From an uncultured Rhodospirillaceae bacterium (lineage in GTDB: Bacteria > Pseudomonadota > Alphaproteobacteria > Rhodospirillales > UBA2165), in the NCBI GenBank assembly GCA_964566055.1, contig CAZMHI010000004.1, positions 20,053-84,052 of the forward strand: a DNA stretch of 64,000 bases. The letters are read 5' to 3'. Of this stretch, positions 3,199 to 36,194 are shown one piece after another (position 1 is the stretch's first letter; every line of letters starts with the position of its first letter). The translations under genes and the position numbers were made by a program. The notes under the pieces were generated by a model that was not told the origin of the DNA, made no database searches, and worked only from the letters and a program-made list of their open reading frames with translations.

Positions 3199-4209
3199 AT
3201 GAAAATTGCTACTGAAGAAGCCTTCACCACCCCGGAATTGGTTAAAGGGTGGAAAGAATTGTTGGATGCTGGATCACCCGCTGAGCCTGGTTTGCCGTTA
3301 TTAGCCGGTCTCTATCAAAATATGGAAATTGAGCGATCTTCCGAAGTTGCAATTAATTTGGCCGATCTCGGTGAGGGACGTATCGCCCATATGGATGAAG
3401 CCGGCGTTGATATGCAGGTAATTTTTATCACCGCCCCTGGTGTCCAGGTGTTTGATGCGGACACCGGTTGTGGCCTGGCTGAGAACGCCAACGATATTCT
3501 GGCCGAAGCCATCAAAACTCACCCGAGCAGATTTGCCGGGCTGGCCGCTATTGCGCCGCAAGCACCCGAACGCGCTGCCCGAGAATTGGAGCGGGCCGTT
3601 GGCTTGGGTCTTAAAGGCGCTGTTGTTAACTCTCATACCAAAGGACAATATCTTGATGCGCCGGAGTTTTGGCCGATCTTAGAGGCCGCTGAAAGTCTGG
3701 ATGTGCCTATTTATATTCATCCGCGGGAATCGGCTCCGGCGATGCTGACGCCTTTTGCCGAACGGCATCTGGAGAAAGCGATGTGGGGGTTTCAAACTGA
3801 AGTTGGTCTTCATGCCTTACGCATGATCGTCTCCGGCGTGTTTGATAGATTTCCCAAATTACAAATCGGCATCGGTCATTTAGGGGAGGGTATCCCCTTC
3901 TGGCTCGACCGTCAGGACAGATTTTATCTCCGCTACCGCCAAGCTCCCGATGCCTATCCACATTTTAAGGCCGAGCATGTGCCGAGCAAGTATTTTCTGG
4001 AAAATTTCTTCGTGACGACGAGCGGGCACAATTGGGATCCGGCGCTGCGATTTGTCGAAGAAGTGATTGGCGAAGATCGTCTGTTGTTTGCCGTCGATTA
4101 TCCGTATGAAAATTGTGTGCAGCAAACCGAACAAGCAGACGCAGTCACGGTAAAAAATCCGGATAAATTCTATCACTTGAACGCTAAGAAATTTTTTAAA
4201 CTCGATTAA
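3199..4209 (+). CDS. Amidohydrolase-2 (ACMSD/LigW-like) family protein, probable non-oxidative aromatic-acid decarboxylase or hydratase
   Basis: 336-aa ORF with N-terminal KIATEEAF and C-terminal FAVDYPYE motifs characteristic of the metal-dependent amidohydrolase_2 decarboxylase family. RBS GAGGAA lies upstream. Confidence 0.7.
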   Translation: MKIATEEAFTTPELVKGWKELLDAGSPAEPGLPLLAGLYQNMEIERSSEVAINLADLGEGRIAHMDEAGVDMQVIFITAPGVQVFDADTGCGLAENANDILAEAIKTHPSRFAGLAAIAPQAPERAARELERAVGLGLKGAVVNSHTKGQYLDAPEFWPILEAAESLDVPIYIHPRESAPAMLTPFAERHLEKAMWGFQTEVGLHALRMIVSGVFDRFPKLQIGIGHLGEGIPFWLDRQDRFYLRYRQAPDAYPHFKAEHVPSKYFLENFFVTTSGHNWDPALRFVEEVIGEDRLLFAVDYPYENCVQQTEQADAVTVKNPDKFYHLNAKKFFKLD

Positions 4210-5993
4210 AGTGATTGGATCGTTTCGGATTTTTTTAACCGGTAGGCCAGTTGCGGGCGAGTGAGGCCGAGCGTGCGGGCCGCTTGGGCAAGGTTGCCGT
4301 TAGCCCGCGCCACCGCTTCTTTCAGCAATTGTCCTTCCATTTCACCAAGTGGAATGCCGCGATCAAGAAAGCGGTCGAGCAAGTCAACATGCTCGGCTGC
4401 TTCAGCGCTCTCAGTATCTTGCTGTAAATTTCCGGTCTCATTGAGTGTCATCATTATCTCCGGAATCCTGCGGGCATCGGCAAACAGATCGGCGACATCG
4501 ATTGGCTGGTCTGAATCAACCAATATAACGGCCCGCTCGATCAGATTTTCCAATTCACGGACATTGCCGGGATAGTCATACTCATAAAGCGCATCAACAG
4601 CCTGCTCGGTAAAGCCAGGTACGGTGCGGCTGTGAGCGCTGGTGTAGCGTTGGAGAAAATGTCCCATCAATAGCGGGATGTCATCGCGGCGTTCGCGCAG
4701 GGGCGGAATATTGACCGGAAATACGTTGAGCCGGAACAATAAGTCCTCGCGAAATTGCTTGTCCCGCACTTTGTCGTCGAGACTTTCATTGGTCGCGGCG
4801 ACAATACGCACATTTGCCTTTCGCACCGTAGTGCCGCCAACCCGCTCGATTTCTTTCTCTTGTAAGGCCCGCAATAGCTTGATCTGAACCTGCAGATTAA
4901 GCGAGCCGATCTCATCTAAAAATAACGTGCCGCCTTCGGCGCGTTCGAAACGGCCGGGGCGTGATGCAACCGCACCGGTATAAGCGCCTTTCTCAACTCC
5001 GAAGAGCTCGGCCTCTACCAGGTTTTCCGGAATAGCGGCGCAGTTAACGGCGATGAAGGGTTTATCCGCGCGCGGTCCAATGCGATGAAGGGTGCGGGCG
5101 AAAATTTCTTTACCAACACCAGTTTCCCCCAAGAATAAAACCGTCGCGTCTGTGTCGGAGACTTTCTGGATCAGATGGCAGGTGGCGTTAAATCCTGGTG
5201 AGGCGCCAATGAGGTCATCGGCAAAGCGATCAGCCTCGGCAGTGTTTTCAACCGGCGTAATAGTTTTGCTTTGGCTGGAGCGGCGATTGGCAAAGGCTTC
5301 CGGCTGGAGGGCTCTCAACTCGGTTTCAATATCATCCCAGTCCTCAACCGGTTTGCCGATGATGCGGCAATGCGGCCCGCTGGCGGCGCGGCATTCAACT
5401 TCTTTAAACACCACCGAGCGGCCCATAAAAGTACTGGCATAACCGCTCGAATAGCCGCTTTGCATCCAACAGACCGCTTCATGGGTTAGGCCGTAGGTCG
5501 CAATATGGGTGTCGGCCTCGTAGGATTCCGGAAAAGTCGCTTCGGAATAAAAATGACCGTTACGTACGTCGATCTCAAACTTTACGGGCTCAAGTGCCGT
5601 CACACCTTGCAGTTTACGCAATTGCGGTCCGACGGCATAGGCATCACGTGTGGTGTGGTGAGGCCGCAGTTTGCGGGCGATATTGGCATCACGCGAACCG
5701 GAAGCGTAACCCATGCGCGTGAAAAAGCCGCGCGCTTCGTCAAGGCCTAGCTTGTCGATCATTTCGGCCCGCAAGGAAGCCAGCGTTGACAAATGGATCA
5801 GGGCTACTCGTTGAGTGTCGAGCCAGATGCGGCCGTTATTTAGAGAAAACCGGAGCCTGGAAACCAGATCGCTGAGATCTTCCGAATGATGCTCATCTTC
5901 CAACTGAGGTTCGATCAGCCGTCCTGTGGTCAATCTGGCTGCATCCGCCTGGCTGATAATCTCATCTGGACCGCCGGTAATTTGATCCGCCAT
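4206..5993 (-). CDS. Sigma-54-dependent transcriptional activator with an XylR_N/V4R aromatic-sensing domain (DmpR/MopR/XylR type)
   Basis: 595 aa. The N-terminus reads GRIWLDTQRVALIHLSTLASLRAEM...GYASGSRDA (XylR_N). The V4R region has C-x22-E-x2-C-x7-C. AAA+ motifs are Walker A GETGVGKE and GAYTGA (a GAFTGA variant). The C-terminal Fis-type HTH reads NLAQAARTLGLTRPQLAYRLKK. Confidence 0.9.
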   Translation of the reverse strand: MADQITGGPDEIISQADAARLTTGRLIEPQLEDEHHSEDLSDLVSRLRFSLNNGRIWLDTQRVALIHLSTLASLRAEMIDKLGLDEARGFFTRMGYASGSRDANIARKLRPHHTTRDAYAVGPQLRKLQGVTALEPVKFEIDVRNGHFYSEATFPESYEADTHIATYGLTHEAVCWMQSGYSSGYASTFMGRSVVFKEVECRAASGPHCRIIGKPVEDWDDIETELRALQPEAFANRRSSQSKTITPVENTAEADRFADDLIGASPGFNATCHLIQKVSDTDATVLFLGETGVGKEIFARTLHRIGPRADKPFIAVNCAAIPENLVEAELFGVEKGAYTGAVASRPGRFERAEGGTLFLDEIGSLNLQVQIKLLRALQEKEIERVGGTTVRKANVRIVAATNESLDDKVRDKQFREDLLFRLNVFPVNIPPLRERRDDIPLLMGHFLQRYTSAHSRTVPGFTEQAVDALYEYDYPGNVRELENLIERAVILVDSDQPIDVADLFADARRIPEIMMTLNETGNLQQDTESAEAAEHVDLLDRFLDRGIPLGEMEGQLLKEAVARANGNLAQAARTLGLTRPQLAYRLKKSETIQSL

Positions 5994-6531: not shown

Positions 6532-8364
6532 ATGTCTAAAAGTTTTCTAAATCCCCATGAAATCGAGGCCATACCCGGTACCGAAGGATGGGAACGGATG
6601 TATCCGTACCAATATCAATTCGTAACGGATGATCCGGAACGAAAAAAATACGAAGAAGAAACTTTCTGGTTCTATGACGGGTTGCATTACCCGGAACCGC
6701 TTTATCCGTTTGATACCATTTGGGATGAAGCCTGGTATCTGGCTTTATCACAATACAATACGCGCATTTTCTCATTGCCGCCGGTCTACGGTGTCGATCA
6801 CCGTATGATCAATGGCTACGTCTATATCTCACCCGTGCCGGTCACCGACCCCTCGGTCGTCGAGGCGCGTGTTCCCGATTTCATGGAACGCGCCGGTTAT
6901 TACTATCAAAACTGGGATGAGCTTGAGGCCAAATGGGAAGAGAAAATGAAAGGCACCATTGCCGAATTGGAGGCTTTGGAAATCGCCGCTCTACCCGATT
7001 TGGAAGAAAAAGGTGTAGTTGATGAGGCGATTGGCGAATCCAAGGGCTATCATCTGCTCAAATCCTATGACGATCTGATCGACCTTGGTATTCGCTGCTG
7101 GCAGTACCATTTCGAGTTCTTGAATTTGGGTTATGCGGCTTATGTCACTTTCATGGGACATTGCCAAAAGTTGTTCCCGGATATTCCGCCACAACGCGTT
7201 ACCCAAATGATATCGGGTATCGATGTGATCATGTATCAGCCGGATGAGGAACTCAAAAACCTCGCCCGCAAAGCGGTTGAACTTGGTGTCGTGGAAGCCG
7301 TCAAATTCAGCAATTCTTTTGATGAAGTCAAAGCCGGTCTGGAAAAAACCGATCCCGGTAAAGAATGGCTAGCTGCTTTGGAAAAAGCACGTTATCCGTG
7401 GTTCTATGTTTCGACCGGTACCGGCTGGTATCACCATGATCGCAGCTGGAACGATGATCTCGATGTTCCATTGGGTTCGATTGTCATTTATATCGAGAAA
7501 ATTATGGCCGGTGAAACCATCGACCGTCCCATGGAGCAGGTTCAACAGGAACGTGACCGCATCACCGCTGAGTATCGCGCGCTGATCGAAAACGAAGAAG
7601 ATCTGGGCGCCTTTGACGAATTGCTGCAAACCGCCAAAACTGTGTTCCCATACGTCGAAAACCATCTGTTCTATGTTGAGCATTGGTTCCATTCAGTGTT
7701 CTGGAACAAAGTGCGTGAAGTTGGCGAGATTATGAAAGCTCATGGTTTCATCAATGACGTCGAGGATATCTGGTATCTCAAACGGGGCGAAATTAAAGAC
7801 GCCTTGTGGGATCTCGTGACTGCTTGGGCGACCAATGTTAATCCTCGTGGTCCGGCAGTTTGGCCGAAAGAAATCGAAGAGCGTAAAGGCATCATGGCGA
7901 AGTTCCGTGAATGGTCTCCACCGCCAGCGATTGGTCCGGCTCCGGAAGTCATTCAAGAGCCGTTTACGGTTGTGCTCTGGGGCGTCACCAACGAGTCGCT
8001 TGAAAACTGGGCCGAAATCGATGAAGCCGCGGATATGGATAGCATTTCCGAATTCAAAGGCTTTGCCGGCAGTCCCGGTACGGTTGAAGGTAAAGCGCGG
8101 GTCTGCCGCACTGTTGCCGATATCGGTATGCTCGAAGAAGGCGAAATTCTGGTGGCCCCGACCACCTCGCCGTCCTGGGCTCCAGCTTTCACTAAGATCC
8201 AAGCCTGCGTCACGGACGTTGGTGGCGTGATGTGTCACGCAGCCATCGTCTGCCGTGAATATGGCGTGCCGGCGGTTGTCGGTACGGGTCATGCAACCAA
8301 GATCGTCAAGACGGGTCAAACCGTCCGGGTCAATGGTAGCACCGGTGAAATTTCCATCGTGTAA
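6532..8364 (+). CDS. PEP-utilising-enzyme family protein, phenylphosphate synthase alpha (PpsA)-like phosphohistidine carrier or substrate-binding subunit
   Basis: 610 aa. The C-terminal mobile domain carries GSPGTVEGKARV...LVAPTTSPSWAPAF...TDVGGVMCHAAIVCREYGVPAVVGT, the phosphohistidine signature. There is no ATP-grasp half. RBS GGGAG lies upstream. Confidence 0.7.
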   Translation: MSKSFLNPHEIEAIPGTEGWERMYPYQYQFVTDDPERKKYEEETFWFYDGLHYPEPLYPFDTIWDEAWYLALSQYNTRIFSLPPVYGVDHRMINGYVYISPVPVTDPSVVEARVPDFMERAGYYYQNWDELEAKWEEKMKGTIAELEALEIAALPDLEEKGVVDEAIGESKGYHLLKSYDDLIDLGIRCWQYHFEFLNLGYAAYVTFMGHCQKLFPDIPPQRVTQMISGIDVIMYQPDEELKNLARKAVELGVVEAVKFSNSFDEVKAGLEKTDPGKEWLAALEKARYPWFYVSTGTGWYHHDRSWNDDLDVPLGSIVIYIEKIMAGETIDRPMEQVQQERDRITAEYRALIENEEDLGAFDELLQTAKTVFPYVENHLFYVEHWFHSVFWNKVREVGEIMKAHGFINDVEDIWYLKRGEIKDALWDLVTAWATNVNPRGPAVWPKEIEERKGIMAKFREWSPPPAIGPAPEVIQEPFTVVLWGVTNESLENWAEIDEAADMDSISEFKGFAGSPGTVEGKARVCRTVADIGMLEEGEILVAPTTSPSWAPAFTKIQACVTDVGGVMCHAAIVCREYGVPAVVGTGHATKIVKTGQTVRVNGSTGEISIV

Positions 8365-8380: not shown

Positions 8381-8403
8381 CCACCCGGTCTTTGGCCGGG
8401 TGG
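8381..8403 (+). other. Intra-operon GC-rich hairpin (no T-tract)
   Basis: CCACCCGG-tctttgg-CCGGGTGG, a perfect 8-bp stem between the ppsA-like stop (8364) and the ppsB-like start (8430). Confidence 0.4.
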
Positions 8404-8429
8404 TGCGGGTGGTTAATTTGGAGGGATCG

Positions 8430-9509
8430 ATGGGTTCCGTTTCACCGATCGTTTGCTGGTTCGAAGATTGCAATAAAGATTCCGTTGATTTGGTTGGCGG
8501 TAAATGTTCGTCGCTGGGTGAGCTTATCAATGCCGGTATTCGGGTGCCGCCGGGCTTTGCCGTAACGACCGAAGGCTATCTGCGTTTTATGTCCGAAGGC
8601 GGCATGAGCAAGCAAATATTTAAGACTCTCGAAGGATTGGATCACGAAGATTTGCCGGCGCTTGAGGCGGCCAGTACCGAAATCCGTGATTTGATCGAAA
8701 ATCTGCCATTCTCGGAAGATTTCGAGGACGACGTTGCTGAATACTATCGTCAACTCTCTACCATCTGCTGTGTTCCGGCCGTACCGGTCGCCGTCCGCTC
8801 TAGTGCTACGGCTGAAGATTTACCCGATGCCAGTTTTGCCGGTCAGCAAGATACTTTTCTTTGGGTCCGTGGCATTGATGATGTCCTGACCCATGTCAAA
8901 AAATGTTTTTCCAGCCTGTTTACCGCCCGGGCCATCGCCTATCGCATTCAGATGAATTTTCCGCATGATCAAGTGGCGATTAGTGTCGGCGTACAGAAAA
9001 TGGCGAATTCTCATACTGCTGGCGTGATGTTCACAATCAATCCGGCAAATGGCGACCGTGCTTCCATCGTCATCAATTCAAGCTTCGGTTTTGGCGAGGC
9101 TGTGGTTTCCGGCGAAGTCACACCGGACGAATTCCTGGTTAATAAGATTTCAATGGAGATGCTTAACCGGGTGATTTCCAAGAAAGAGCTTTATTACACG
9201 GTCGATTTTGTCAGCCAAACCTCAAAGCTCTACGACGTGCCGGTTGAGCGGCAATCCATTCAATCTATTGTCGACGAGGAAGTTATAGATCTCGCCGAAA
9301 TGGGAAAACGCATCGAAAAGCATTATGGCCGTCCGATGGATATCGAATGGGCTGTCGACAAAGACATGCCGGCCGATGCCAATATTTTCATTCTCCAAGC
9401 ACGGCCTGAAACCGTGTGGAGTTCCAAGAAAAAAGAACCTGTTGCCGTCACCGGCAGCGCTATGGACCACATTTTAGCGTCAGTGATGGAGGGCAAAAGT
9501 CTCAACTAA
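8430..9509 (+). CDS. PEP synthase/PPDK N-terminal (ATP-grasp) domain protein, phenylphosphate synthase beta (PpsB)-like
   Basis: The ORF track starts at 8400. I prefer ATG 8430 after GGAGGGA. The sequence VDLVGGKCSSLGELINAGIRVPPGFAVTTEGY...VAVRSSATAEDLPDASFAGQQDTFL is the PPDK_N nucleotide-binding half only. Confidence 0.75.
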   Translation: MGSVSPIVCWFEDCNKDSVDLVGGKCSSLGELINAGIRVPPGFAVTTEGYLRFMSEGGMSKQIFKTLEGLDHEDLPALEAASTEIRDLIENLPFSEDFEDDVAEYYRQLSTICCVPAVPVAVRSSATAEDLPDASFAGQQDTFLWVRGIDDVLTHVKKCFSSLFTARAIAYRIQMNFPHDQVAISVGVQKMANSHTAGVMFTINPANGDRASIVINSSFGFGEAVVSGEVTPDEFLVNKISMEMLNRVISKKELYYTVDFVSQTSKLYDVPVERQSIQSIVDEEVIDLAEMGKRIEKHYGRPMDIEWAVDKDMPADANIFILQARPETVWSSKKKEPVAVTGSAMDHILASVMEGKSLN

Positions 9510-9601: not shown

Positions 9602-11101
9602 ATGGATAAACAACTTAAACCAAATGCGATTGATGATATTCGATCATACATTGCAGCGCTTGATGCTGCGGGAGAACTACATCGGGTTAAAACCGAAGTC
9701 GATTGGGAATATGAGCTTTGCCATGTTTCCAAGGTGAACGAAGAACAAGATGGTCCAGCGTTGCTATATGAAAACGTCAAAGACAATACGGTTCCGGTTT
9801 TCACCAGCGCCTTCACCACCAAAGAACGCTTGGCCATTGCGCTTGAGCAGGAACCAGGTCTTTCGATGAGTGATCTCGCCCAGAAATGGATGGAATTGAC
9901 CACTCAGGGACTTATACCGCCGGAATATGTTGATGAAGTTCCGGTCATGGAAAACCAGATGGTTGGTGACGATATCGATATCACCAAGTTTCCTGTGCCG
10001 TGGTTCTATCCCGATGATGGTGGCCGCTTCTTTGTGACTGCTGGTTATCTGATTACCGAAGATCCGGATACCGGCTGGTCCAACCTTGGTACTTATCGTT
10101 CGCAAGTCTTGGGACCGGATCTTCTGGGTTCGCAAATCCTGCCTGGTAAGCACGGTGAGTTCCACATGAAGAAATATCAGGAACGTGGTGAATTGATGCC
10201 GGCTGCTGCCGTGGTTGGTTGTGATCCTGTGCTGTTCCTGGCGGGCTCGACCTTGGTCAGTTCCGATGTCTCCGAATATGATGTCGCCGGTGCATTGCGC
10301 CAGCGTCCGGTACCGGTCTTTAAATCCGACGTGACCGGCCTGACTTTGCCGGCCAATGCGGAGATTATCGCTGAAGGCTTTGTTGATCCGAACGAGTTGA
10401 TGGATGAAGGTCCGTTTGGCGAATATACCGGTTACTATTCGGGTAACAAAGGTAAAGACTTCCCAAAACCGGTGCTGCGTATCAAACGTATCCTTTACCG
10501 GAACAAGCCGGTTATGTGGTCAACCACGGTTGGTAAACCAATCAATGACATTCACATGATCCAATCGCTTAACCGGACGGCAACGCTCTGGCATGATCTC
10601 GAAACCATGAAAGTGCCAGGTATCGAAAGTGTCTACATTCCACCGGAAGCTTGTGGCCGGTTCTGGGCTATCGTTTCGGTGCGCCAGAAATATCCGGGTC
10701 ACTCCAACCATGTCGGTAACGCGGTGATCGCGTCAACCACAGGTCACTATGGCATCAAGGGTGTGATTACGGTCGATCATGATATCCAGGCGGATGACTG
10801 GGATCGCGTGATGTGGGCCTTGTCGACCCGCTTCGATCCGAAACGTTCAGCCCAGATCATTGATCGTGGCCGCTCGACGGTGCTTGATCCGGGTCTGCCA
10901 ATCGATGCGCGTAAAATCACCAGCCGTATTCTGCTGGATGCTTGTACGCCGTATGAATGGGAAAATAAACCAAACGAGATTTTCATGGATCGCAAAGTTC
11001 TGCAGAAAGTCTCTGACCGGTGGAATGATTATGGCTTCGAAGGGACTAGCCCGGTTGCCAATATGATTGACCGGCTGACCAAACCGGAAACGGCTGAATA
11101 A
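9602..11101 (+). CDS. UbiD-family prFMN-dependent (de)carboxylase
   Basis: 499 aa. It has a UbiD-type N-terminus (DIRSYIAALDAAGELHRVKTEVDWEYEL) and UbiD-typical length and layout. RBS AGGAGA. UbiX and an LpdD-like gene lie in the same operon. Confidence 0.85.
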   Translation: MDKQLKPNAIDDIRSYIAALDAAGELHRVKTEVDWEYELCHVSKVNEEQDGPALLYENVKDNTVPVFTSAFTTKERLAIALEQEPGLSMSDLAQKWMELTTQGLIPPEYVDEVPVMENQMVGDDIDITKFPVPWFYPDDGGRFFVTAGYLITEDPDTGWSNLGTYRSQVLGPDLLGSQILPGKHGEFHMKKYQERGELMPAAAVVGCDPVLFLAGSTLVSSDVSEYDVAGALRQRPVPVFKSDVTGLTLPANAEIIAEGFVDPNELMDEGPFGEYTGYYSGNKGKDFPKPVLRIKRILYRNKPVMWSTTVGKPINDIHMIQSLNRTATLWHDLETMKVPGIESVYIPPEACGRFWAIVSVRQKYPGHSNHVGNAVIASTTGHYGIKGVITVDHDIQADDWDRVMWALSTRFDPKRSAQIIDRGRSTVLDPGLPIDARKITSRILLDACTPYEWENKPNEIFMDRKVLQKVSDRWNDYGFEGTSPVANMIDRLTKPETAE

Positions 11102-11114: not shown

Positions 11115-11152
11115 TAGGGGGGGTGGGTTCAACTCACTCCCCTAATTTTTTT
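11115..11152 (+). terminator. Candidate intrinsic terminator or attenuator inside the operon
   Basis: TAGGGG(gg)GTG...CAC(t)CCCCTA forms a GC-rich stem followed by AATTTTTTT (T-run 11146-11152). It lies between the UbiD stop and the UPF0261 start. Confidence 0.45.
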
Positions 11153-11184: not shown

Positions 11185-12447
11185 ATGGTTGAAAAAAAAG
11201 GAATTGTCATTATCTGCAACCTCGATACCAGGGGTGAAGATATCATCTTTGTCAAAGAGATGATCGAAGAGCGCGGCCACAATGCCGTGCTGGTCGATGT
11301 CAGTATGGAGGAACCACCACCTTTTGCCGGTGACGTTACGTGTGAAGAAGTTGCTGAACGCGGCGGTAAGACAATCGAGGAAGTGCGTAGATGTTACCGC
11401 GAAGACCGCGATGAGGCGACCCAAAACCAAATCAGAGGTGCGGCGGCAATTGTCGATGATCTCCTCAAAGAAGGTAAAGTCCACGGAATTTTTGGCGTTG
11501 GCGGCGGAACGGCGACGCTGATCTCAACTGCCATTATGAGGAAACTGCCATTTGGTATGCCGAAAGTCATGGCTTCGCCAATGGCCGCACATCCCCGCTA
11601 TATCGATAAATATGTCGGTACCAGCGACCTCACCATGCATCACACCATACTCGATATTGTCAAAATGAATCCGCTTCTGAAAGCGCAGATCACAAATGCG
11701 ATTGGCGCCATCTGCGGTATGGTCGAGATGACCATGGGCACTGAGTTTAAATTTGATAAGCCGGTGGTCGCGATCACCGCTTTTAGTTTCGGTGAAATGG
11801 CCGTGCAAACGGCTGTAAGGATGCTGGAAGAGGAAGGCTTTACGCCGATTGTTTGTCATTCCCAGGGTAAGGGCGACCGCGCCATGGAAGAAATGATTAA
11901 AGACGGCGCCTTTGATGGCATTATTGATATCTGCACCGGCGGCATTATGGAGCATCTTTATGATGGCAATCGTGATCCGGGCCCGGACCGTCTCAAAGCC
12001 GCGGCTGCGGCAGGTATCCCAGCCGTGCTGGCTCCCTGCGGGCTTGATATTCTGAGTTATGGCGGGCGGGAAGATAAAATCGAGCAATCCAAAGACCGGG
12101 TGCAATTTGTCCAGGATGCCCTGCGCGTCCAGGTGCGAACCAATGCAGAGGAACTTACCCAAGCAGCAGATGTGATTGCCGAGCGGCTCAACCAGTCGAC
12201 CGGCCCGTTTACTTTTATGCTGCCGATGCAGGGATGGTCGTCTCTGGACCGGGAAGGCTGCCCAATTTACGATCTTGAGGCTGATGCGGTTTTTGCCGAA
12301 CGCCTACAAGAGAAAATTGATGATAAGACCGCGGTTAAAGAAGTTGACCTGCACCTCTATACGCCGGAATTTGCCAGGGCGGCGGTTGATGAATTTAAGC
12401 GCCTCTATGAACTGAGCAATTCTTCCGAGATGGATAAAGCGGGATAA
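11185..12447 (+). CDS. UPF0261 / Tm-1-like ATP-binding domain protein (function unknown)
   Basis: 420 aa. The N-terminus MVEKKGIVIICNLDTRGEDIIFVKEMIEERGHNAVLVDVS resembles the UPF0261 family pattern (IxxxGTLDTKGEE...). Family assignment is from memory. Confidence 0.6.
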   Translation: MVEKKGIVIICNLDTRGEDIIFVKEMIEERGHNAVLVDVSMEEPPPFAGDVTCEEVAERGGKTIEEVRRCYREDRDEATQNQIRGAAAIVDDLLKEGKVHGIFGVGGGTATLISTAIMRKLPFGMPKVMASPMAAHPRYIDKYVGTSDLTMHHTILDIVKMNPLLKAQITNAIGAICGMVEMTMGTEFKFDKPVVAITAFSFGEMAVQTAVRMLEEEGFTPIVCHSQGKGDRAMEEMIKDGAFDGIIDICTGGIMEHLYDGNRDPGPDRLKAAAAAGIPAVLAPCGLDILSYGGREDKIEQSKDRVQFVQDALRVQVRTNAEELTQAADVIAERLNQSTGPFTFMLPMQGWSSLDREGCPIYDLEADAVFAERLQEKIDDKTAVKEVDLHLYTPEFARAAVDEFKRLYELSNSSEMDKAG

Positions 12448-12461: not shown

Positions 12462-13139
12462 ATGCTTGTGCAAAATTGGATGAAAAGTAATCCGGAAACA
12501 GTCACCAGTGATACTCTGGTTTCCGAGGCCAAGCGTCTTTTGACGGAAAAAAATCTGCGCGCCTTGCCGGTGGTGGATGACGACCGCTTGCGGGGGCTGA
12601 TTACGCGGGCCAATTGCCTGCGCGCTGCTGAGTTTGTTTCCCGTGGCCAGGACCCCAACGAATTTGATTTTTTCGCCAATCGTTTAAAAGTTAAAGACCT
12701 TATGTCCCGCCGCCCGGCAACGGTCAGTGCCGATGACACCATGGAGCATTGCCTGAGGCGTGGTCAGGATGAAGACATCAGCCAGTTTCCGGTCGTCGAT
12801 GGTGACAAGCTTATCGGTATAATTTCGGCATCGGAGATTTTCGGCTTGGCCGCTCATGTGCTGGGCGCTTGGGACAGCTGGAGCGGCATTACTCTATCCC
12901 CAATGATTATCGATAAAGGCACTTTGGGCGAGATTGCCGGCATTGTCGAAGACAACGGCGGCACACTGCAATCCATGTTCACGGTGGATGAAAACGGCAG
13001 TGATTTGAAACGGGTAATCTTAAGATTTCAGGCCGATGACTTTGATGCAGTGGGTGCAGCCCTGACAGATGCTGGATTTACGCTCTTGGAAGCTTGCCCT
13101 GAGGTGCAAAATAATCAAAATACGAGCGATGCAGGATAA
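12462..13139 (+). CDS. Tandem-CBS plus ACT-like domain protein (AcuB-like), phenylphosphate synthase stimulatory subunit (PpsC)-like
   Basis: 225 aa. Two CBS motifs are visible (LRALPVVDDDRLRGLITRAN; ISQFPVVDGDKLIGIISASEI) with a C-terminal ACT-like region. RBS GGAGGG. Confidence 0.7.
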   Translation: MLVQNWMKSNPETVTSDTLVSEAKRLLTEKNLRALPVVDDDRLRGLITRANCLRAAEFVSRGQDPNEFDFFANRLKVKDLMSRRPATVSADDTMEHCLRRGQDEDISQFPVVDGDKLIGIISASEIFGLAAHVLGAWDSWSGITLSPMIIDKGTLGEIAGIVEDNGGTLQSMFTVDENGSDLKRVILRFQADDFDAVGAALTDAGFTLLEACPEVQNNQNTSDAG

Positions 13140-13545
13140 TTCTGACAATCTTGAGAAATTTGCCGTTAGCAGCAGCGATGTGATATACACGGTTTGCGCC
13201 GAAGCAGTTAAAATCGGCAATGACTATCTGGTATATTTATGGGGTGGTGAAGCGCCTCATATCGGTGCTGTTGCAGCGGCCCAGCCCCGGCCCAGCTTGG
13301 TAGACCCGGCAGAAACCAGTGCGTCATCCTCGGTGTTGACCTATGTCGGTCATAAAGAGGATATTGTGGCCAAACAGGTCGCCGAAGATTTATCCAGTGC
13401 GCTTGATGAAAATGTTGTTGTCACCGCCGGGATTCATTGGGATAACATCGAAAAAACCGGTATCGAAAAAGTGGTTGCAGGATGCCGGGAAGTTACCGAA
13501 GCACTGATTGAGGTGCTCGGCAAACACAGCAAGGAAACGAAATGA
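13129..13545 (+). CDS. LpdD-like small protein (putative prenylated-flavin chaperone or accessory subunit of the UbiD enzyme)
   Basis: The ORF track starts at 13069, inside the CBS gene. I prefer ATG 13129, which overlaps the CBS stop. The motifs WGGEAPHIGAVA and VTAGIHWDNI resemble the GGxxPHIG and TAGIH motifs I recall from Lactobacillus LpdD. The stop overlaps the ubiX start (ATGA). Confidence 0.45.
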   Translation: MQDNSDNLEKFAVSSSDVIYTVCAEAVKIGNDYLVYLWGGEAPHIGAVAAAQPRPSLVDPAETSASSSVLTYVGHKEDIVAKQVAEDLSSALDENVVVTAGIHWDNIEKTGIEKVVAGCREVTEALIEVLGKHSKETK

Positions 13546-14192
13546 CACACCCTCTTGTCGTCGCTGTTACCGGTGCCACCGGCGTGATTTACGGCGTTGA
13601 ATTGCTTAAAGTTCTGAAAGAACTTGGCGAGGAAACCCATCTGATTTTAAGTGAATCAGCCGGCCGCAATTTGAAAATCGAGACTGAATATAATCTCGAT
13701 GATGTGCGCGCTTTGGCTGATGTTGTCTACAGCAACAAGGACATTGGTGCCGCGGTCGCCAGTGGATCTTTCCTGACCCGGGGTATGGTGGTCGTGCCCT
13801 GCACAATCAAAAGCCTTTCGGCGATTGCCAATTCCTACAATGACAATCTCGTTGCCCGGGCAGCCGATGTGACTTTGAAGGAGAAGCGCCGCTTGGTGCT
13901 GATGGTAAGGGAAACACCCTTGCACAAAGGCCATCTCGATTTGATGTCCCGTAGCGCTGATTTGGGGGCGACGATCCTGCCGCCGATGCCGTCCTTTTAT
14001 CACGGACCGCAAACCATCCAGGACATTATTAACCAAAGTATCGGTAAGGTGCTGGATCAGTTCAGCATCGAGCATAGTCTTTTCCGCCGCTGGAAAGGCG
14101 ATGAGCGGGTGACCGATCGGGAAGTTAAAACGCCTAGCAAAGATAGAGTAGAAGAGCTGGAATCCCGCTTCGGTGAAATCAAGCGTATGTAG
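13542..14192 (+). CDS. ubiX: UbiX-family flavin prenyltransferase (prFMN synthase)
   Basis: 216 aa. VVAVTGATGVIYGVELLKVL...MVVVPCTIKSLSAIANSYNDNLVARAADVTLKEKRRLVLMVRETPL is a classic UbiX/Pad1 sequence. Confidence 0.9.
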   Translation: MTHPLVVAVTGATGVIYGVELLKVLKELGEETHLILSESAGRNLKIETEYNLDDVRALADVVYSNKDIGAAVASGSFLTRGMVVVPCTIKSLSAIANSYNDNLVARAADVTLKEKRRLVLMVRETPLHKGHLDLMSRSADLGATILPPMPSFYHGPQTIQDIINQSIGKVLDQFSIEHSLFRRWKGDERVTDREVKTPSKDRVEELESRFGEIKRM

Positions 14193-14198: not shown

Positions 14199-16526
14199 CT
14201 ACTCCTGTTGCTCCAGCACGTCCAAGACTTTTTCAGGTGTCATTGGTAGAGAATTTGGCCGCCCGCCAATAGCATCATCAATGGCATTGGCAATTGCTGG
14301 CGCGACGCCAACCATCGCCGGTTCACCGACACCCTTGGCGCCGAAAGGTCCAGCTGGTTCCGGGTCTTCAACAATTATCGTCTGAACTTTGGGCACTTCT
14401 TTGACGCCCGGCACTTTGTATTCCATCAGCGTTGGATTGACCAAACGGCCATTGTCCCAGACCATTTCTTCAAACAGCGCATAGCCCATGCCTTGGGCGA
14501 AACCACCTTGGATTTGGCCTTCAATATTTGTCGGATTAATCGCCTTACCGACATCAGCGGCAGCCCAGGCTTTGACCACTTCAACCTGGCCGGTGACTTC
14601 GTCAACATCAACGGCGGCACCCTGAACGCCGTAAATATAGGCGCCCATATTACCGAAGACGACGGCTTTCATCTTGGAGCCTTCACGATCGAAGGGCGGT
14701 CCATCAAAAACAAACGTATGGGTGCCGATGATCGGTCCGCCAACCCCATAATGCGCACGCAACGAGGCCTCTTTAAAAGTGATGGTGCGGTTGACCAAAG
14801 GACTGTCTGTAACGTCAGCTTTTACGCCGACCTGGCCGCCTGAAATTAACGTCAGCTGAGCCGGGTCACAGTCGAGCATAGCAGCTGCGTGTTCCATGAT
14901 CTGATCGGCAACGTCTTCGGCTGCCGCCTTAACTGCCCGGCCCGTGGTGTAGGTGGTGCGGCTGCCGACAGATTTGTAATTGTAGGGTGTCGTGTCGGTA
15001 TCAGGCTCGGTTACATTTATGGCTTCGATCGGCAGCTTAAGAGCTTCGGCGCAAATTTGCGCCAAGATGGTACTCGCGCCCTGGCCGATCTCAATACCGC
15101 CGGTATTCATGGTAATGGTGCCGTCTTCACGCAGTTGCACTGAAGCACCGCTGGCCAAAAAACTGCTGATATGGGCAAAACCTGAAAAACCAAAGCCGCG
15201 TTTTTTACCGGCTACAGGTGGCGGCAATTGATCTTTATCTAGTTCCGCCGCCTTTTGTACTTCTTCGAGGCATTGGGCAAAGCCGCAGGCCGGCACTTCC
15301 TGGCCGCCCAGCCATTTATCGCCGGCCACCATGGCGTTCTTTTGGCGCACTTCCATTGGTGACAGCTCAAGCGCTTGGGCGAGGCGGTCAATCAGGCATT
15401 CACGGGCGATGGTGGTTTGCGGATTGCCGAAGCCCCGGAACGAGCCGGCTCGTAGTTTATTGGTGTAAAATGCCCGGGCTGAGCCGCGGAAATTTGGGAT
15501 CCGGTAGGGCCCCCGCGCCATCATCAGGCCGAAACTTGCAACCGCCGGGGTTTCGTCCATGAAAGAGCCGCCATCGAACAATAGTTCGGCTTCCTGAGCG
15601 ATAAAAGTGCCGTCTTTCTTAGCGCCCATTTTCATGCGCACGCGTGACGGGTGACGCGACCGGCAGGTTTCAAAATCCAAGGTGCGAGAGAGAGTAATTT
15701 TAACCGGTTTGCTGGCTTTAAGCGCCAGGGCAGCGGCAATCGGCTGCATATGAGGCCCAGCCCGGCCACCAAAGCCACCACCAACAGCTGGAGAAATTGC
15801 CCGCACTTTGGTAAGCGGCAGGCCGAGATAATCAGCTGTCCGGGTTTGAATGAAATGAACACCCTGGTTCGGCCCCCAAACCGTTACTTTACCATTAGCG
15901 TCGACATCGGCGAGAGCAGAGGCTGGCTCTAAATAGAGATGATGCTGAGCCTGGGTCTCAAATGTTTCTTCGACCACGGCATCGCACTCAGCCCAGGCAG
16001 CATCAACATCACCTTCCTCTGCCGAGGTTGCCCAGCATTCATTGCCGCTAACCTCGAGGTCCGTTACTTTCATTTGGTAGGTAGAGAAATCCGGGTGGAT
16101 GATCGGCAGATCAGGATTCATCGCATCATCAATCGAGAGAATTGGCGTCAGCTCTTCATACTCGACTTGGATCAAGCGGGTGGCTTCTTCAGCGGCTTCT
16201 CGCGAGCGAGCGGCAACGGCGGCAACCGGCTCACCGATATAGCGGACCCTGCCTTTGGCCAGCAAGGTTTCGTCTTTGACGTGGCCACCGCTGCGAAACC
16301 AATCATAGTCATCACCGGTGATGACGGCTTTGACGCCGGGCACCTTAAGGGCTGCAGAAATATCGTAAGATACTATGGTGGCATGGGCGTGCGGGCTTGT
16401 AGCAATGGCCCCAAAGAGCATGCCGGGCAAGGTCATGTCATCGGTATAGCGGGCGCGACCGATTGCTTTATCTTTACCTTCGAGCCGGGTAACGCGTTGG
16501 CCAATCGTGTCTAAGACTTCGGTCAT
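14199..16526 (-). CDS. Xanthine-dehydrogenase-family molybdopterin-binding large subunit (set 1)
   Basis: 775 aa. It has an Ald_Xan_dh N-terminal domain (GRARYTDDMTLPGMLFGAIATSPHAHA) and the GGGFGGR Mo-cofactor motif. It overlaps the 2Fe-2S subunit gene by 4 nt. Confidence 0.9.
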   Translation of the reverse strand: MTEVLDTIGQRVTRLEGKDKAIGRARYTDDMTLPGMLFGAIATSPHAHATIVSYDISAALKVPGVKAVITGDDYDWFRSGGHVKDETLLAKGRVRYIGEPVAAVAARSREAAEEATRLIQVEYEELTPILSIDDAMNPDLPIIHPDFSTYQMKVTDLEVSGNECWATSAEEGDVDAAWAECDAVVEETFETQAQHHLYLEPASALADVDANGKVTVWGPNQGVHFIQTRTADYLGLPLTKVRAISPAVGGGFGGRAGPHMQPIAAALALKASKPVKITLSRTLDFETCRSRHPSRVRMKMGAKKDGTFIAQEAELLFDGGSFMDETPAVASFGLMMARGPYRIPNFRGSARAFYTNKLRAGSFRGFGNPQTTIARECLIDRLAQALELSPMEVRQKNAMVAGDKWLGGQEVPACGFAQCLEEVQKAAELDKDQLPPPVAGKKRGFGFSGFAHISSFLASGASVQLREDGTITMNTGGIEIGQGASTILAQICAEALKLPIEAINVTEPDTDTTPYNYKSVGSRTTYTTGRAVKAAAEDVADQIMEHAAAMLDCDPAQLTLISGGQVGVKADVTDSPLVNRTITFKEASLRAHYGVGGPIIGTHTFVFDGPPFDREGSKMKAVVFGNMGAYIYGVQGAAVDVDEVTGQVEVVKAWAAADVGKAINPTNIEGQIQGGFAQGMGYALFEEMVWDNGRLVNPTLMEYKVPGVKEVPKVQTIIVEDPEPAGPFGAKGVGEPAMVGVAPAIANAIDDAIGGRPNSLPMTPEKVLDVLEQQE

Positions 16527-17008
16527 TGCGCTGCTCCCTTGAGTTGACCGGCAGCTTGAACGGCCGAGGCGATAATTTTTTCATAGCCGGTACAGCGGCA
16601 GATGTTGCCTGAAATACCTTCACGAATCTCGGCTTTGCCCGCCTCGGGATTGCTTTTAAGGATGGAACTGACGGTCAGGATCATACCGGACGAACAAAAA
16701 CCGCATTGAATGCCGCCGGTATCAACGAAGGATTGTTGCACAACGTCCAAACCTTCGGGTGTGGCCAGTCCCTCGATGGTGGTTATCTCAGCACCTTCGC
16801 AGAGGGCAGCGATAGTTAAACAGCCCCGTACCGGTTCACCATTGATCAAAACCGTGCAGGTGCCGCAGACGCCCTGATCGCAGCCCCGTTTGGCACCGGT
16901 TAAATTAAGTCTTTCGCGCAGCACAGTCAGTAGAGTTTCCTGAGCCGGCGCCGTGACGGTTTCAATCTCGCCATTAATATTGAGATCGTAAGTTAAAGTA
17001 TCACTCAT
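16523..17008 (-). CDS. (2Fe-2S)-binding small subunit of the Mo hydroxylase (set 1)
   Basis: 161 aa with both cluster motifs: CDQGVCGTCTV...C and QCGFCSSGM...CRCTGY. Confidence 0.9.
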   Translation of the reverse strand: MSDTLTYDLNINGEIETVTAPAQETLLTVLRERLNLTGAKRGCDQGVCGTCTVLINGEPVRGCLTIAALCEGAEITTIEGLATPEGLDVVQQSFVDTGGIQCGFCSSGMILTVSSILKSNPEAGKAEIREGISGNICRCTGYEKIIASAVQAAGQLKGAAQ

Positions 17009-24611: not shown

Positions 24612-26936
24612 ATGGGAATGAAACCATCTCCCTTTGGGACCCAAATACCTTATGAGGAAAAAGAACTTAAAGTCGTCGGCACCAACCCGGAAGCTCGGCC
24701 GGATGCTGTCGACAAAGTAACTGGCAAGGCGCGCTACGCCGCCGATATCAACGTGCCAGGGCAATTAATTGGTAAGGTACTGAGAAGCCCGCACGCGCAT
24801 GCTGTCATCAAGTCCATCGATACTTCGGAAGCTGAAAAGCTAAAAGGCGTCAAGGCGGTAATATGCCGTGATGATTTACCGGATATGCCGGTCATGCACG
24901 CGGCAGCCGGTGAGATTATGGTTAATTTCCGTGATGTCACCCGTGCCATAATGGCGCGTGAGAAAGCTTTGTTTGATGGTCATCCCGTGGCTGCTGTGGC
25001 TGCCACCAGTGAATCTGTCGCCAAGGCGGCCCTCAAGCTGATTAAAGTAGAGTATGAAGTGCTGCCCCATGTTATTGATGTGGTTGATGCCATGAAACCG
25101 GATGCGCCACTTCTTAATGAAGAACAATTTACCAAAGGTGTTGAACCGGCGCCCGATAAGCCCTCCAACATCGCTGCACGAATGACCAGCGTACTGGGTG
25201 ACGTTGAAGAAGGATTTGGACAGGCTGATCTGGTCGTCGAACGCGAATTTAATACCAAGGCCGCTCATCAAGGCTATATCGAGCCCCATGCCAGTCTGGC
25301 CATTTATACCGAGGGCGGAAACGCCGAGGTTTGGACCAGTACTCAGGGTCATTTCCTGATCCGCGCCCAGACCGCTAAGATTCTGGAAATGGATGTCTCC
25401 CGCGTTAAGGTAACACCGGCGGAACTCGGTGGCGGTTTCGGCGGTAAAAACATGATTTATCTGGAGCCGCTGGCCATCGTTTTGTCTAAGAAATCGGGAC
25501 GACCGGTGAAAATGGTGATGACGCGGGACGAGGTGTTCCGCGCTTCGGGTCCGACCTCAGGCACAAACATTATCATTAAGATCGGTGTCACCAAGGACGG
25601 CAGGATAACGGCCGCTCAGGCGATTTTAAATTATCAATCGGGTTGTTTCCCGGGTTCTTCGCTGCCGCTCTGCACGCCGACCGCCTTCACCCGCTATGAT
25701 ATCGCCAACGTCCTGGTGATCGGCAATGACGTTGTCTGTAACCGGCCGAAAGTTACAGCCTACCGGGCGCCAGGAGCCCCGATGATCGCCTTTGGCGTTG
25801 AAACGGTGATGGATGAAATTGCTGAAGAGCTGGATATTGATCGTCTCGAAATCCGGCTTATGAATGCCGCCAAAGAAGGCACCCAGACCCATTTCGGGCC
25901 AAAACTGGGACCGATCGGCTTTATTGAAACGCTGGAAGCGGCAAAAGCTCATGACCATCTGAAGGAGAAGCTCGGACCCAATCAGGGCCGCGGTATTGCC
26001 ACCGGTTTCTGGAACACGCTGGGTATGGAAACGTCAGCAACTCTCAACGTCAACCAGGACGGCACAGCCTCCCTGATTTATGGTACGGTTGATGTGGCGG
26101 GCGGTATGCGCGCTGCCTATTCACAGATTGTTGCTGAAGAATTAGGTATTCCGTTTGAGAAAGTGCGGGCGATCCAGAGCGATACCACGTCTTTGGGTTT
26201 CAACTTTACGACAGCCGGCAGCCGGGGCACGGCGGCGGGCGGAATGGCGGCGGTTAAAGCCAGCCGCGATGCCATCACCCGCATGTGCGAGGTGGCTGCC
26301 CGTATCTGGGAAGTGGAGCCGGACCAAGTCGTTTGGGAAAACGGTCATGCCCGCCCGGCCAGTTCCAATGTCGGCGAGTTTGAGCCCTTGTCGCTGGCCG
26401 AGATCGCCATGAAAGCAGGCTTTTTTGGCGGCACCATTGCAGGCCATGCGGAAATTAATGTGACCGGCGGTGGGCCCGGCTTCGGCACTCATCTGGTAGA
26501 CGTCGAAGTTGACCGGGAAACCGGTGCGGTTAAAGTGCTGCGCTATACTATTGTCCAGGATGCCGGCAAGGCCGTGTTCCCGGATTATGTCAAAGCTCAG
26601 TTCCACGGTGCTGCGGTTCAAGGTATCGGCTTGGCTCTGAACGAGGAATATATCTATGACGAAAACGGCGTGATGGCCAATCCGGGATTCTTGGATTACC
26701 GGGTGCCGGTTGCCTCAGACATTCCGCCTATTGAAACCGTGATCGTTGAAGTACCGAATCCGAACCATCCTTACGGCATTAGAGGTGTTGGTGAAGTGCC
26801 GATCATTCCGCCACTTGGGGCGATTTCTAACGCGATTTATGACGCCGTTGGTATTCGGATGCGGGATCATCCGATGTCGCCACCAAAAGTCCTGGCCGCT
26901 CTAGATGAAGCCGAACCGGCGGCAGCGGCGGAGTAA
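24612..26936 (+). CDS. Xanthine-dehydrogenase-family molybdopterin-binding large subunit (set 2)
   Basis: 774 aa. GKARYAADINVPGQLIGKVLRSPHAHA and the GGGFGGK motif. It is tightly spaced with the S and M subunit genes. Confidence 0.9.
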   Translation: MGMKPSPFGTQIPYEEKELKVVGTNPEARPDAVDKVTGKARYAADINVPGQLIGKVLRSPHAHAVIKSIDTSEAEKLKGVKAVICRDDLPDMPVMHAAAGEIMVNFRDVTRAIMAREKALFDGHPVAAVAATSESVAKAALKLIKVEYEVLPHVIDVVDAMKPDAPLLNEEQFTKGVEPAPDKPSNIAARMTSVLGDVEEGFGQADLVVEREFNTKAAHQGYIEPHASLAIYTEGGNAEVWTSTQGHFLIRAQTAKILEMDVSRVKVTPAELGGGFGGKNMIYLEPLAIVLSKKSGRPVKMVMTRDEVFRASGPTSGTNIIIKIGVTKDGRITAAQAILNYQSGCFPGSSLPLCTPTAFTRYDIANVLVIGNDVVCNRPKVTAYRAPGAPMIAFGVETVMDEIAEELDIDRLEIRLMNAAKEGTQTHFGPKLGPIGFIETLEAAKAHDHLKEKLGPNQGRGIATGFWNTLGMETSATLNVNQDGTASLIYGTVDVAGGMRAAYSQIVAEELGIPFEKVRAIQSDTTSLGFNFTTAGSRGTAAGGMAAVKASRDAITRMCEVAARIWEVEPDQVVWENGHARPASSNVGEFEPLSLAEIAMKAGFFGGTIAGHAEINVTGGGPGFGTHLVDVEVDRETGAVKVLRYTIVQDAGKAVFPDYVKAQFHGAAVQGIGLALNEEYIYDENGVMANPGFLDYRVPVASDIPPIETVIVEVPNPNHPYGIRGVGEVPIIPPLGAISNAIYDAVGIRMRDHPMSPPKVLAALDEAEPAAAAE

Positions 26937-36157: not shown

Positions 36158-36194
36158 CGCCGGGAGGGTCGAGAGATGCTCCCGGCGTTTTTTT
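36158..36194 (+). terminator. Rho-independent terminator
   Basis: CGCCGGGAG-(12 nt)-CTCCCGGCG, a perfect 9-bp stem followed by TTTTTTT (36188-36194). It lies between convergent genes. Confidence 0.75.

Follow-up and report, generated by a model that had tools for sequence, protein, structure and literature searches.

Anaerobic phenol activation proceeds in two steps, phosphorylation and carboxylation, and it is understood only for the four-subunit enzyme of Thauera. The delta subunit, PpcD of Thauera and Azoarcus, is a HAD-type phosphatase that resembles KDO-8-P phosphatase. Single UbiD carboxylases that lack the alpha and delta subunits occur in Geobacter, in Desulfatiglans and, as shown here, in many marine and soil Proteobacteria; for the first two, another catalytic mechanism is required and the energy cost is unexplained (PMC6114531). 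The window analysed here, a stretch of 64,000 nucleotides from an uncultured Rhodospirillaceae bacterium (GCA_964566055.1, contig CAZMHI010000004.1, positions 20,053 to 84,052), contains a phenol operon of this single-UbiD type, and the gene that follows its ubiD belongs to the UPF0261 family. From its sequence and context, this gene is best read as encoding a specialised aryl-O-phosphotransferase of the MarK/UPF0261 family that would serve the carboxylase side of a phenol operon of the Geobacter type. We give a probability of roughly 0.4 to the view that its clade, here called clade I, provides the single UbiD with a partner for handling the phosphoryl group of phenylphosphate.

The phenol operon of Geobacter metallireducens (Gmet_2100-2105) has the same gene order as the window. 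The supplementary table of Butler et al. (2007) lists Gmet_2101 as PpsB, Gmet_2102 as UbiD, Gmet_2104 as a CBS protein and Gmet_2105 as UbiX, and gives Gmet_2103 as 'hypothetical', with 1257 bp, 418 amino acids and a best hit in a haloarchaeon. Judged by size, position and this best hit rather than by its sequence, Gmet_2103 would be the orthologue of the window protein; no Geobacter-labelled match stood among the top 120 of a protein search. In Desulfatiglans anilini, UPF0261 proteins are induced along with both the phenol and the aniline clusters. H567DRAFT_02057, from the phenol cluster, reached an area of 2.5e9 on phenol, whereas the areas on benzoate or aniline were 5e7 (PMC7500099, Table_1); the level was thus about 48-fold higher on phenol than on benzoate, while H567DRAFT_03869, from the aniline cluster, was seen on aniline or 4-aminobenzoate only; the authors drew both genes as uncharacterised (PMC7500099). 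UbiD was about 7-fold more abundant than UPF0261 in the same proteome. The 02057-type protein differs from the window's in being only about 35% identical and in having Ser in place of the pocket His.

Carboxylase activity has not been reconstituted from the Geobacter or the D. anilini system. Phenylphosphate carboxylase activity was not demonstrable in D. anilini extracts, and ppcG, the gene for the gamma subunit, is absent there, with Geobacter cited as likewise lacking it (PMC6114531). The recombinant UbiD pair of D. anilini converted phenylphosphoamidate but not phenylphosphate (PMC7500099). Since neither the extracts nor the recombinant UbiD converted phenylphosphate, some component appears to be missing from those assays. 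Discussion of UPF0261 in phenol clusters was not found in the searchable literature, outside which the Geobacter phenol paper of Schleinitz et al. (2009) lies, and the gene is overlooked in that literature on the model organisms.

The characterised member of the family is MarK, encoded by Saro_1862 in Novosphingobium aromaticivorans (PDB 9MPY); it is a UPF0261 protein that acts on its own, as a homodimer (Hall et al., JBC 2025, PMC12624787). MarK uses ATP to phosphorylate the phenolic hydroxyl of acetovanillone and related compounds, releasing ADP, and it prefers phenols with a para carbonyl group (PMC12624787). Its nucleotide site comprises D14, T15 and K16, the last essential for the rate, and the phenol is surrounded by G195, H219 and H304, with His219 hydrogen-bonded to the phenolic oxygen; placing Lys at position 16 in place of Glu (E16K) raises activity about 1600-fold, and D14-T15-K16, G195 and H304 are more than 90% conserved in MarK homologues (PMC12624787). 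The biotin-dependent carboxylase that MarK feeds takes the phosphorylated phenol only, and a HAD phosphatase later strips the phosphate (PMC9618137). The alternative kinases of the pathway, AcvAB and HpeHI, are homologues of the phenylphosphate synthase PpsAB.

In the window, the genes run on the same strand in the order ppsA-ppsB-ubiD-UPF0261-CBS-lpdD-ubiX, and their products are as follows.
6532..8364, + strand: PpsA-like phenylphosphate synthase subunit with the phospho-histidine mobile domain (PF00391 PEP-utilizers; NF006152, 1120 bits).
8400..9509, + strand: PpsB-like, dikinase ATP-binding subunit (PF01326 PPDK_N, 389 bits).
9602..11101, + strand: UbiD-family carboxylase dependent on prenylated flavin mononucleotide (prFMN), PpcB type, the sole UbiD in the operon (UbiD_N, UbiD, UbiD_C).
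11185..12447, + strand: UPF0261 / Tm-1-like / MarK-family two-domain protein of clade I (ATG start, 420 amino acids).
12462..13139, + strand: CBS-pair protein, PpsC-like (PF00571, two copies).
13129..13545, + strand: LpdD-like prFMNH2-binding chaperone (PF21758, PAC_bac / LpdD_chaperone, 125 bits).
13542..14192, + strand: UbiX flavin prenyltransferase (PF02441; NF004685, 252 bits against a cut-off of 188).

The gene set of the single-UbiD, Geobacter-type operon is present, with ppsA, ppsB, a ppsC-like CBS gene, a PpcB-type ubiD that passes TIGR02724 phenyl_P_beta (561 bits against a cut-off of 469) and ubiX. An earlier note, made from the letters of this DNA alone, had placed a UPF0261 gene between UbiD and the PpsC-like CBS protein and had found its usual TIM-barrel partner absent. 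Position and family both hold, and membership in UPF0261 is secure from the sequence. Residues 6-183 of the protein match PF06792 UPF0261 at 175.1 bits and residues 192-407 match PF23189 UPF0261_C at 222.2 bits, each against a gathering cut-off of 27; the protein also exceeds the cut-off of the subfamily model NF002674, and it scores 533.8 bits on NCBIfam NF002676 (PRK02399.1-4), slightly below the cut-off of 556. It aligns full-length with MarK (9MPY; E = 6e-54, residues 1-404, about 30% identity) and end to end with tomato Tm-1 (E = 2e-39). An AlphaFold2 model (pLDDT 86, pTM 0.80) compared with the PDB by Foldseek gave two-domain matches only to MarK (9MPY) and Tm-1 (3WRW/X/Y), at E values of about 1e-33 to 1e-30. 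An AGGA lies 11 nt upstream of the ATG, and 14 nt separate the stop codon from the CBS start, which has the ribosome-binding site GGAGGG.

The absence of the partner holds locally as well. With a Rhizobium seed for the PEP-hydrolase-like TIM-barrel protein (L060:3681-4523), tblastn gave a best E of 2.4 across the 64-kb window and 59 related loci, and a Pfam scan found no PEP_hydrolase domain in 40 larger window open reading frames (ORFs) outside the operon; a distant or split partner in the window was rejected on these scans. Tm-1 and the Rhizobium pairs (RLEG3_RS31840/31835) share the UPF0261 domains and a nucleotide-site motif at the identical position with the window protein. The TIM-partnered proteins differ in having the TIM barrel fused or adjacent, in the sugar transporter and GntR regulator genes nearby, and in retaining the canonical T-x-D-T-K-G and H-x-H-N motifs; Tm-1 differs further in that its known activity is not enzymatic but the ATP-bridged inhibition of a viral replicase. 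A further expectation of the earlier note, that this context could give the family its first functional assignment, has been overtaken by MarK, a kinase that carries a phosphoryl group from ATP to a phenolic hydroxyl, forms ADP and works without a TIM-barrel partner (PMC12624787).

The association with Pps and UbiD genes is not peculiar to this genome. A locus scan with one genome per species gave the 59 loci. In 55 of them the encoded protein shares 65% identity or more with the window UPF0261, and neighbourhoods were counted in the 37 clade-I loci whose flanks reach 5 kb or more upstream and 2.5 kb or more downstream. PpsA, PpsB and UbiD occur together in 34 of the 37, and UbiD is encoded immediately upstream of UPF0261 in 30. 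The CBS gene is present in 33 loci and is the immediate downstream neighbour in 29, whereas UbiX and a sigma-54 activator homologue are each found in 32. The conserved core of clade I is ppsA-ppsB-ubiD-UPF0261-CBS-ubiX, and in most related loci UbiD is 75-93% identical to that of the window. The hosts fall into six groups: Alpha-, Beta- and Gammaproteobacteria, Myxococcota (Anaeromyxobacter), Desulfobacterota (Thermodesulfobacteriota) and Spirochaetes, with one spirochaete. UPF0261-Pps-UbiD is among the most conserved gene neighbourhoods measurable here. In about 8 Burkholderiales loci, a gap of about 600 bp separates UPF0261 from the CBS gene; the one inspected, in L023, holds a 182-aa ORF (L023:11248-11796) with a motif that resembles a Nudix box by eye.

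A second UPF0261 clade shares only about 35% identity with the window protein. Abundant in Syntrophorhabdaceae, Syntrophus and Bacillota, it also stands beside Pps and UbiD genes, as in D. anilini; its arrangement is UbiD - AMP-ligase - UPF0261 - Hcr-like - PpsA - PpsB - UPF0261 - LpdD-like - UbiX. Syntrophorhabdaceae-type operons carry two UPF0261 paralogues (L062/L063 9001-10224 and 17291-18520; L056). The first follows UbiD and the AMP-ligase, and Ser takes the position of its pocket His; the second is canonical and follows PpsB, in the slot of the Proteobacterial CBS gene. On a rough neighbour-joining tree, clade I, its 45-47% relatives and the UbiD-adjacent clade IIa (Syntrophorhabdaceae, D. 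anilini, Bacillota) form a super-clade, outside which lie MarK, the TIM-partnered Rhizobium type and the canonical post-PpsB copy (clade IIb).

That second slot bears on the idea that UPF0261 is a non-catalytic nucleotide sensor or dikinase regulator, either a PpsC-like stimulator or a PSRP-like kinase/phosphatase acting on PpsA. Operons of Syntrophorhabdaceae without a CBS gene have their second UPF0261 copy in the post-PpsB slot, Tm-1 works by ATP-bridged protein binding, and Lys16 has become Arg in clade I. Proteobacterial operons, however, carry both the CBS protein and UPF0261, the post-PpsB copy belongs to the separate, canonical clade, and the substrate-pocket His is invariant in clade I, so that we regard a purely regulatory function as decidedly improbable.

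The clearest indication of where UPF0261 acts comes from a comparison of kinase and carboxylase modules. The pps-ppc cluster on a plasmid of Azoarcus sp. KH32C (L088) encodes PpsA, PpsB and CBS proteins that are 71%, 64% and 52% identical to those of the window, kinase-side identities as high as in many window-type loci, with the CBS protein located after PpsB. Its carboxylase genes are ppcB-ppcD-ppcA-ppcG, the ppcB product being 53% identical to the window UbiD, and no UPF0261 is detectable in the cluster. Conversely, no delta-like HAD was found in the 64-kb window and 58 loci. Because Azoarcus shares the kinase module but has ppcB-D-A-G and no UPF0261, the presence of UPF0261 follows the carboxylase type and not the kinase type. 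The Azoarcus cluster also holds a DUF120 gene and an annotated NUDIX gene directly after ubiX (L088:18446-19448); such Nudix and DUF120 genes may supply FMN and dimethylallyl phosphate for prFMN synthesis.

PpcD and the window protein share an operon slot, right after the PpcB-type UbiD, and the task proposed here would be alike, namely to break the aryl-O-P bond of phenylphosphate on behalf of a UbiD-type carboxylase. The two are unrelated in sequence and fold (HAD versus UPF0261), which leaves room for a functional equivalence at most. PpcD hydrolyses the ester in concert with the alpha, beta and gamma subunits; UPF0261, with its nucleotide site, could pass the phosphate on to ADP or AMP.

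The main competing explanation is that UPF0261 is a second, cheaper phenol kinase, which would convert phenol and ATP to phenylphosphate and ADP in parallel to PpsAB at one ATP equivalent rather than the two spent by the AMP-forming dikinase, for example at high phenol, with PpsAB scavenging at low phenol. It amounts to plain transfer of function from MarK, the only characterised homologue, with the D-T-(K/R)-G motif of the ATP site and the phenol-binding His225 conserved. About 25% of genomes with either kinase type hold both (PMC12624787). This explanation also fits loci where UPF0261 co-occurs with delta-type HADs or stands alone, as well as clusters that pair UPF0261 with a biotin carboxylase whose substrate is the aryl phosphate. 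Such a kinase would be redundant with PpsAB, yet both are kept in 34 of the 34 operons with UbiD and UPF0261, PpsAB is never replaced by UPF0261, and UPF0261 is more conserved than PpsA, PpsB, UbiX or CBS. Since the costlier dikinase is never lost beside UPF0261, the two are argued to be non-redundant. The link to carboxylase type rather than kinase type tells against a second kinase too, as do the residues that separate clade I from MarK: the Lys that raises MarK activity is Arg in 121 of 121 members, and the G195 and H304 contacts are altered. Taken with its merits, this explanation seems to us somewhat doubtful.

Clade I comprises 121 sequences that are 72-95% identical to the window protein, and the nearest representative outside it, in a library of 1.84 billion proteins, reaches 47% identity. 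Its signature in the window protein is N12-L-D-T-R16-G ... H225 ... Q310-D311, and it departs from the family at four motifs.
Nucleotide site: family consensus T-x-D-T-K-G; clade I N-L-D-T-R-G, invariant.
Motif before the pocket: family consensus G-x-T-T; clade I (G/S)-F-G-E.
Phenol-binding His: family consensus F-H; clade I C-H, with H225 invariant.
Stacking His pair: family consensus H-x-H-N; clade I (Y/F)-x-Q-D.

D14, T15 and H225 are identical in 120 or 121 of the 121 members, and H225, aligned with MarK H219, is invariant in all of them. Position 16 is Arg in the window protein and throughout the clade, where MarK has Lys; among 131 representatives of the UPF0261 family it is Lys in 120 and Arg in 8. 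At the position of MarK G195 the window protein has S201, although 116 of the 121 members carry Gly there, and H304 corresponds to Q310 in all 121. H302 is replaced by F or Y and N305 by D in clade I, while the ketone-binding H348 of MarK is Leu (L354) in the window protein. By these residues, clade I is a specialised variant in which the nucleotide site and the phenol-binding His are kept and the pocket is remodelled. Since several of the residues that define MarK fail, the window protein is, on sequence grounds, not of the MarK functional type and is not to be filed as MarK.

The two proteins have in common the two-domain UPF0261 fold, the lack of a TIM-barrel partner, D14, T15 and the His that binds the phenol oxygen, and each is encoded beside a carboxylase acting on a phosphorylated phenol. 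The carboxylase is a biotin enzyme for MarK but a UbiD/prFMN ring carboxylase for the window protein, and MarK replaces the PpsAB dikinase, which is always co-encoded with window-type UPF0261. Co-location with biotin carboxylase and phosphatase genes of the acvCDEF/hpeCBAD type was not seen; the neighbours are ppsAB, ubiD, the CBS gene, the lpdD-like gene and ubiX. P0241, the nearest outgroup to clade I at 47% identity, likewise has the motif N-x-D-T-R-G; on its short contig (L065 407-2394), the gene shows translational coupling to one for an HD-domain phosphohydrolase. In a plasmid collection, no member of clade I was found, all 347 matches being below 40% identity.

A remodelled pocket could also mean a kinase for another phenolic compound, such as 4-hydroxybenzoate, 4-hydroxybenzoyl-CoA, catechol, cresols or hydroquinone; on 4-hydroxybenzoyl-CoA, phosphorylation would create a better leaving group for reductive dehydroxylation. 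MarK prefers para-carbonyl phenols, of which 4-hydroxybenzoyl-CoA is one, the pocket residues are unlike those of MarK, and in Desulfobacterota and Syntrophorhabdaceae UPF0261 adjoins Hcr-like genes and an AMP-forming ligase. This reading is decidedly unlikely, given that Hcr-like genes lie within 10 kb in only 4 of the 37 loci, that the conserved core contains no ligase gene and that the known 4-hydroxybenzoyl-CoA reductases, as established in Thauera, need no ATP.

Other UPF0261 clades lie beside PpsAB-like dikinases and biotin-type carboxyltransferases, or beside thiolases, with no UbiD or UbiX nearby. In L068 (9001-14717), L072 (269-12353, an assembly of a metagenome-assembled genome, MAG) and L070 (1851-7654), all metagenome contigs, UPF0261 occurs with a biotin carboxylase or PYC_OADA carboxyltransferase and/or PpsAB-like dikinases, short-chain dehydrogenase/reductase genes and a thiolase. 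They look like uncharacterised variants of the hydroxyacetophenone/acetovanillone kinase-carboxylase pathway. Dikinase, UPF0261 and carboxylase form a recurrent theme across UPF0261 clades, and this speaks against a prFMN-specific role.

Such a role had some appeal, since the UPF0261 gene sits among ubiD, lpdD-like and ubiX genes and comes after ubiX in clusters of the L054 type; the protein would help the cofactor or maturation of UbiD, by making dimethylallyl phosphate for UbiX or by ATP-driven loading of prFMN. The clades that combine UPF0261 with dikinases and biotin carboxylases have no UbiD or UbiX to serve, however, and Nudix or Nudix-like genes, a more usual candidate source of dimethylallyl phosphate, are present in several clusters (Burkholderiales, Azoarcus). 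The Azoarcus cluster also needs prFMN, yet has no UPF0261, and the phenol-binding His is conserved. A supply role for prFMN or dimethylallyl phosphate was set aside as unlikely on the UPF0261 clades without UbiD/UbiX and the Nudix genes, and a helper function of any such kind is very improbable.

Under the reading we prefer, phosphoryl handling at the carboxylase, PpsA and PpsB, stimulated by the CBS protein, would convert phenol to phenylphosphate at the expense of ATP, yielding AMP and Pi. Phenylphosphate would then bind the C-terminal phenol pocket of UPF0261 at His225, and the N-terminal nucleotide site (D14-T15-R16-G17) would take the phosphoryl group off and pass it to ADP, AMP or water. 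The phenolate thus released would go to the single UbiD for carboxylation of the ring para to the oxygen, UbiX and the LpdD-like chaperone having equipped this UbiD with prFMN. In Thauera and Azoarcus, the counterpart of the proposed UPF0261 step would be that of the HAD-type delta subunit with the alpha and gamma subunits. The family, the fold, the conserved residues, the gene neighbourhood and the expression of relatives together with the pathway are shown; phenylphosphate as substrate, transfer away from it and direct contact with UbiD are what we infer for the protein, which in this scheme would act as a coupling subunit of UbiD.

A bolder version, which we consider unlikely, has UPF0261 running the MarK reaction backwards, with phenylphosphate as donor and either ADP or the AMP that PpsAB releases as acceptor, while the phenolate is handed to UbiD. 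The O-P bond of tyrosine phosphate has about the same energy as the terminal bond of ATP, and Fukami and Lipmann reportedly found in 1983 that tyrosine kinases are readily reversible, so a transfer from phenylphosphate to ADP is thermodynamically reasonable. If this were the case, part of the ATP spent on phenol activation would be recovered and the activation cost halved. It would account for the ability of iron reducers, sulfate reducers and syntrophs to afford the pathway, and for the failure of those phenylphosphate carboxylase assays of Geobacter and D. anilini that were run without a nucleotide acceptor.

Several observations weigh against phosphoryl handling for UbiD. The sole characterised relative, MarK, runs in the kinase direction, and the aniline route of D. 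anilini was reconstituted in vitro without the UPF0261 protein (PMC7500099). In clade IIa, the type of D. anilini 02057, Ser stands where clade I has its pocket His. Three clade-I loci of Xanthobacteraceae and Roseiarcus (L026, L027, L043) lack Pps and UbiD genes near UPF0261, whose neighbours there are dehydrogenases, an amidase, transporters and a MalT-type regulator; the protein is thus able to work alone. A metagenome scan seeded with delta-like HADs, in which 5 clusters extended far enough, led to the rejection of strict mutual exclusion between UPF0261 and the delta subunit. These clusters read ppcB - HAD - HAD - ppcA-like - UbiD - UbiX, and in 3 of the 5 a sister-clade UPF0261 follows UbiX; this sister clade (L054 type), 45% identical and with Lys16 kept, stands beside two delta-like HAD genes, and in the Bacillota locus L064 UPF0261 is followed by a HAD hydrolase. 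Mirror-tree comparisons point towards the carboxylase side, since UPF0261 correlates most highly with UbiD (r = 0.79, partial 0.31) and least with PpsA (r = 0.67, partial -0.18), but this preference is suggestive, modest and not decisive, resting on small differences without a significance test.

The earlier note had proposed that the gene fills the place of a phosphate-handling component, the role of the phosphatase-like delta subunit. A role on the carboxylase side is favoured by Azoarcus, with its kinase module but no UPF0261, and by window-type loci, with one UbiD and no delta HAD. The simple form of the proposal, replacement of delta, is weakened by the sister clade: since UPF0261 coexists with a delta-type phosphatase in L054-type clusters, it is not simply 'delta in another fold'.

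Further features of the window lie around these genes.
4206..5993, - strand, divergent: sigma-54 activator of the phenol-sensor type with XylR_N and V4R, MobR/PheR-like (Pfam Sigma54_activat, XylR_N, V4R, HTH_8).
11117..11143, + strand: GC-rich hairpin and T-run, terminator- or attenuator-like (12-pair stem with 7 GC pairs, then AATTTTTTTC).
14199..17847, - strand, convergent: three-gene molybdenum hydroxylase, 4-hydroxybenzoyl-CoA-reductase-like, with large, 2Fe-2S and FAD subunits (MoCoBD_1/2, Fer2_2, FAD_binding_5).
18671-19636, 19633-20364, 20585-21025 and 21971-23128: ORFs without a Pfam match, in a stretch of low G+C.

The activator scores 549 bits on the NCBIfam MobR model, under its exception cut-off. 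An 83-nt spacer separates the UbiD stop from the UPF0261 start and contains this strong hairpin; the spacer folds at -21.5 kcal/mol in RNAfold, and GC-rich hairpins of differing sequence occupy the matching position in L001, L002, L003, L005, L008 and L010. The hairpin may serve as an attenuator within the operon or as an mRNA-stability element, keeping the level of UbiD above that of the downstream genes. The longest frame of the LpdD-like ORF begins at 13069, but translation probably starts from the ATG at 13129. As a chaperone that binds prFMNH2, LpdD aids activation of UbiD enzymes (PMC10865409); the gene occurs in just 11 of the 37 related loci.

On TIGR03194 HcrA, the convergent molybdenum hydroxylase reaches 565 bits, under the cut-off of 995, which makes it a relative and not a confirmed HcrA. 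Three molybdenum hydroxylases of the xanthine-dehydrogenase family lie in the window: this one, at 14199-17847 (-), and those at 23264-26936 (+) and 45696-47990 (-). A second UbiD-family gene, at 50288-51658 and 37 kb from the operon, has UbiD and UbiD_C, with UbiD_N not detected. The stretch 18671-23128 has a G+C content of 0.44-0.45 against about 0.52; it holds the four ORFs without Pfam matches together with a gene of the endonuclease/exonuclease/phosphatase family, and it may be an inserted segment. Genes for oxygen-dependent aromatic catabolism are also present, encoding a LigB-type dioxygenase, an HpaB-type hydroxylase and a FAD ring hydroxylase (26992-28017, 34599-36134, 36193-37776), and the closest relative, at 94% identity, is a marine gammaproteobacterial MAG (L001). 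From the aerobic catabolism genes and this marine relative, the operon type is widespread in probably facultative aerobes too, and not in strict anaerobes alone.

This example draws attention to a gene that has long been labelled 'hypothetical' or 'uncharacterized' beside its carboxylase and whose family now has a proven aryl-O-phosphate chemistry. The clade is sharply delimited by N-L-D-T-R-G, C-H and Q-D, and annotation pipelines could name it apart from the generic Tm-1-like proteins. For the component missing from the single-UbiD phenol system since 2009, the UPF0261 gene is the strongest candidate. It offers a concrete candidate for reconstitution assays, and it makes a long-standing question of anaerobic aromatic metabolism directly testable.

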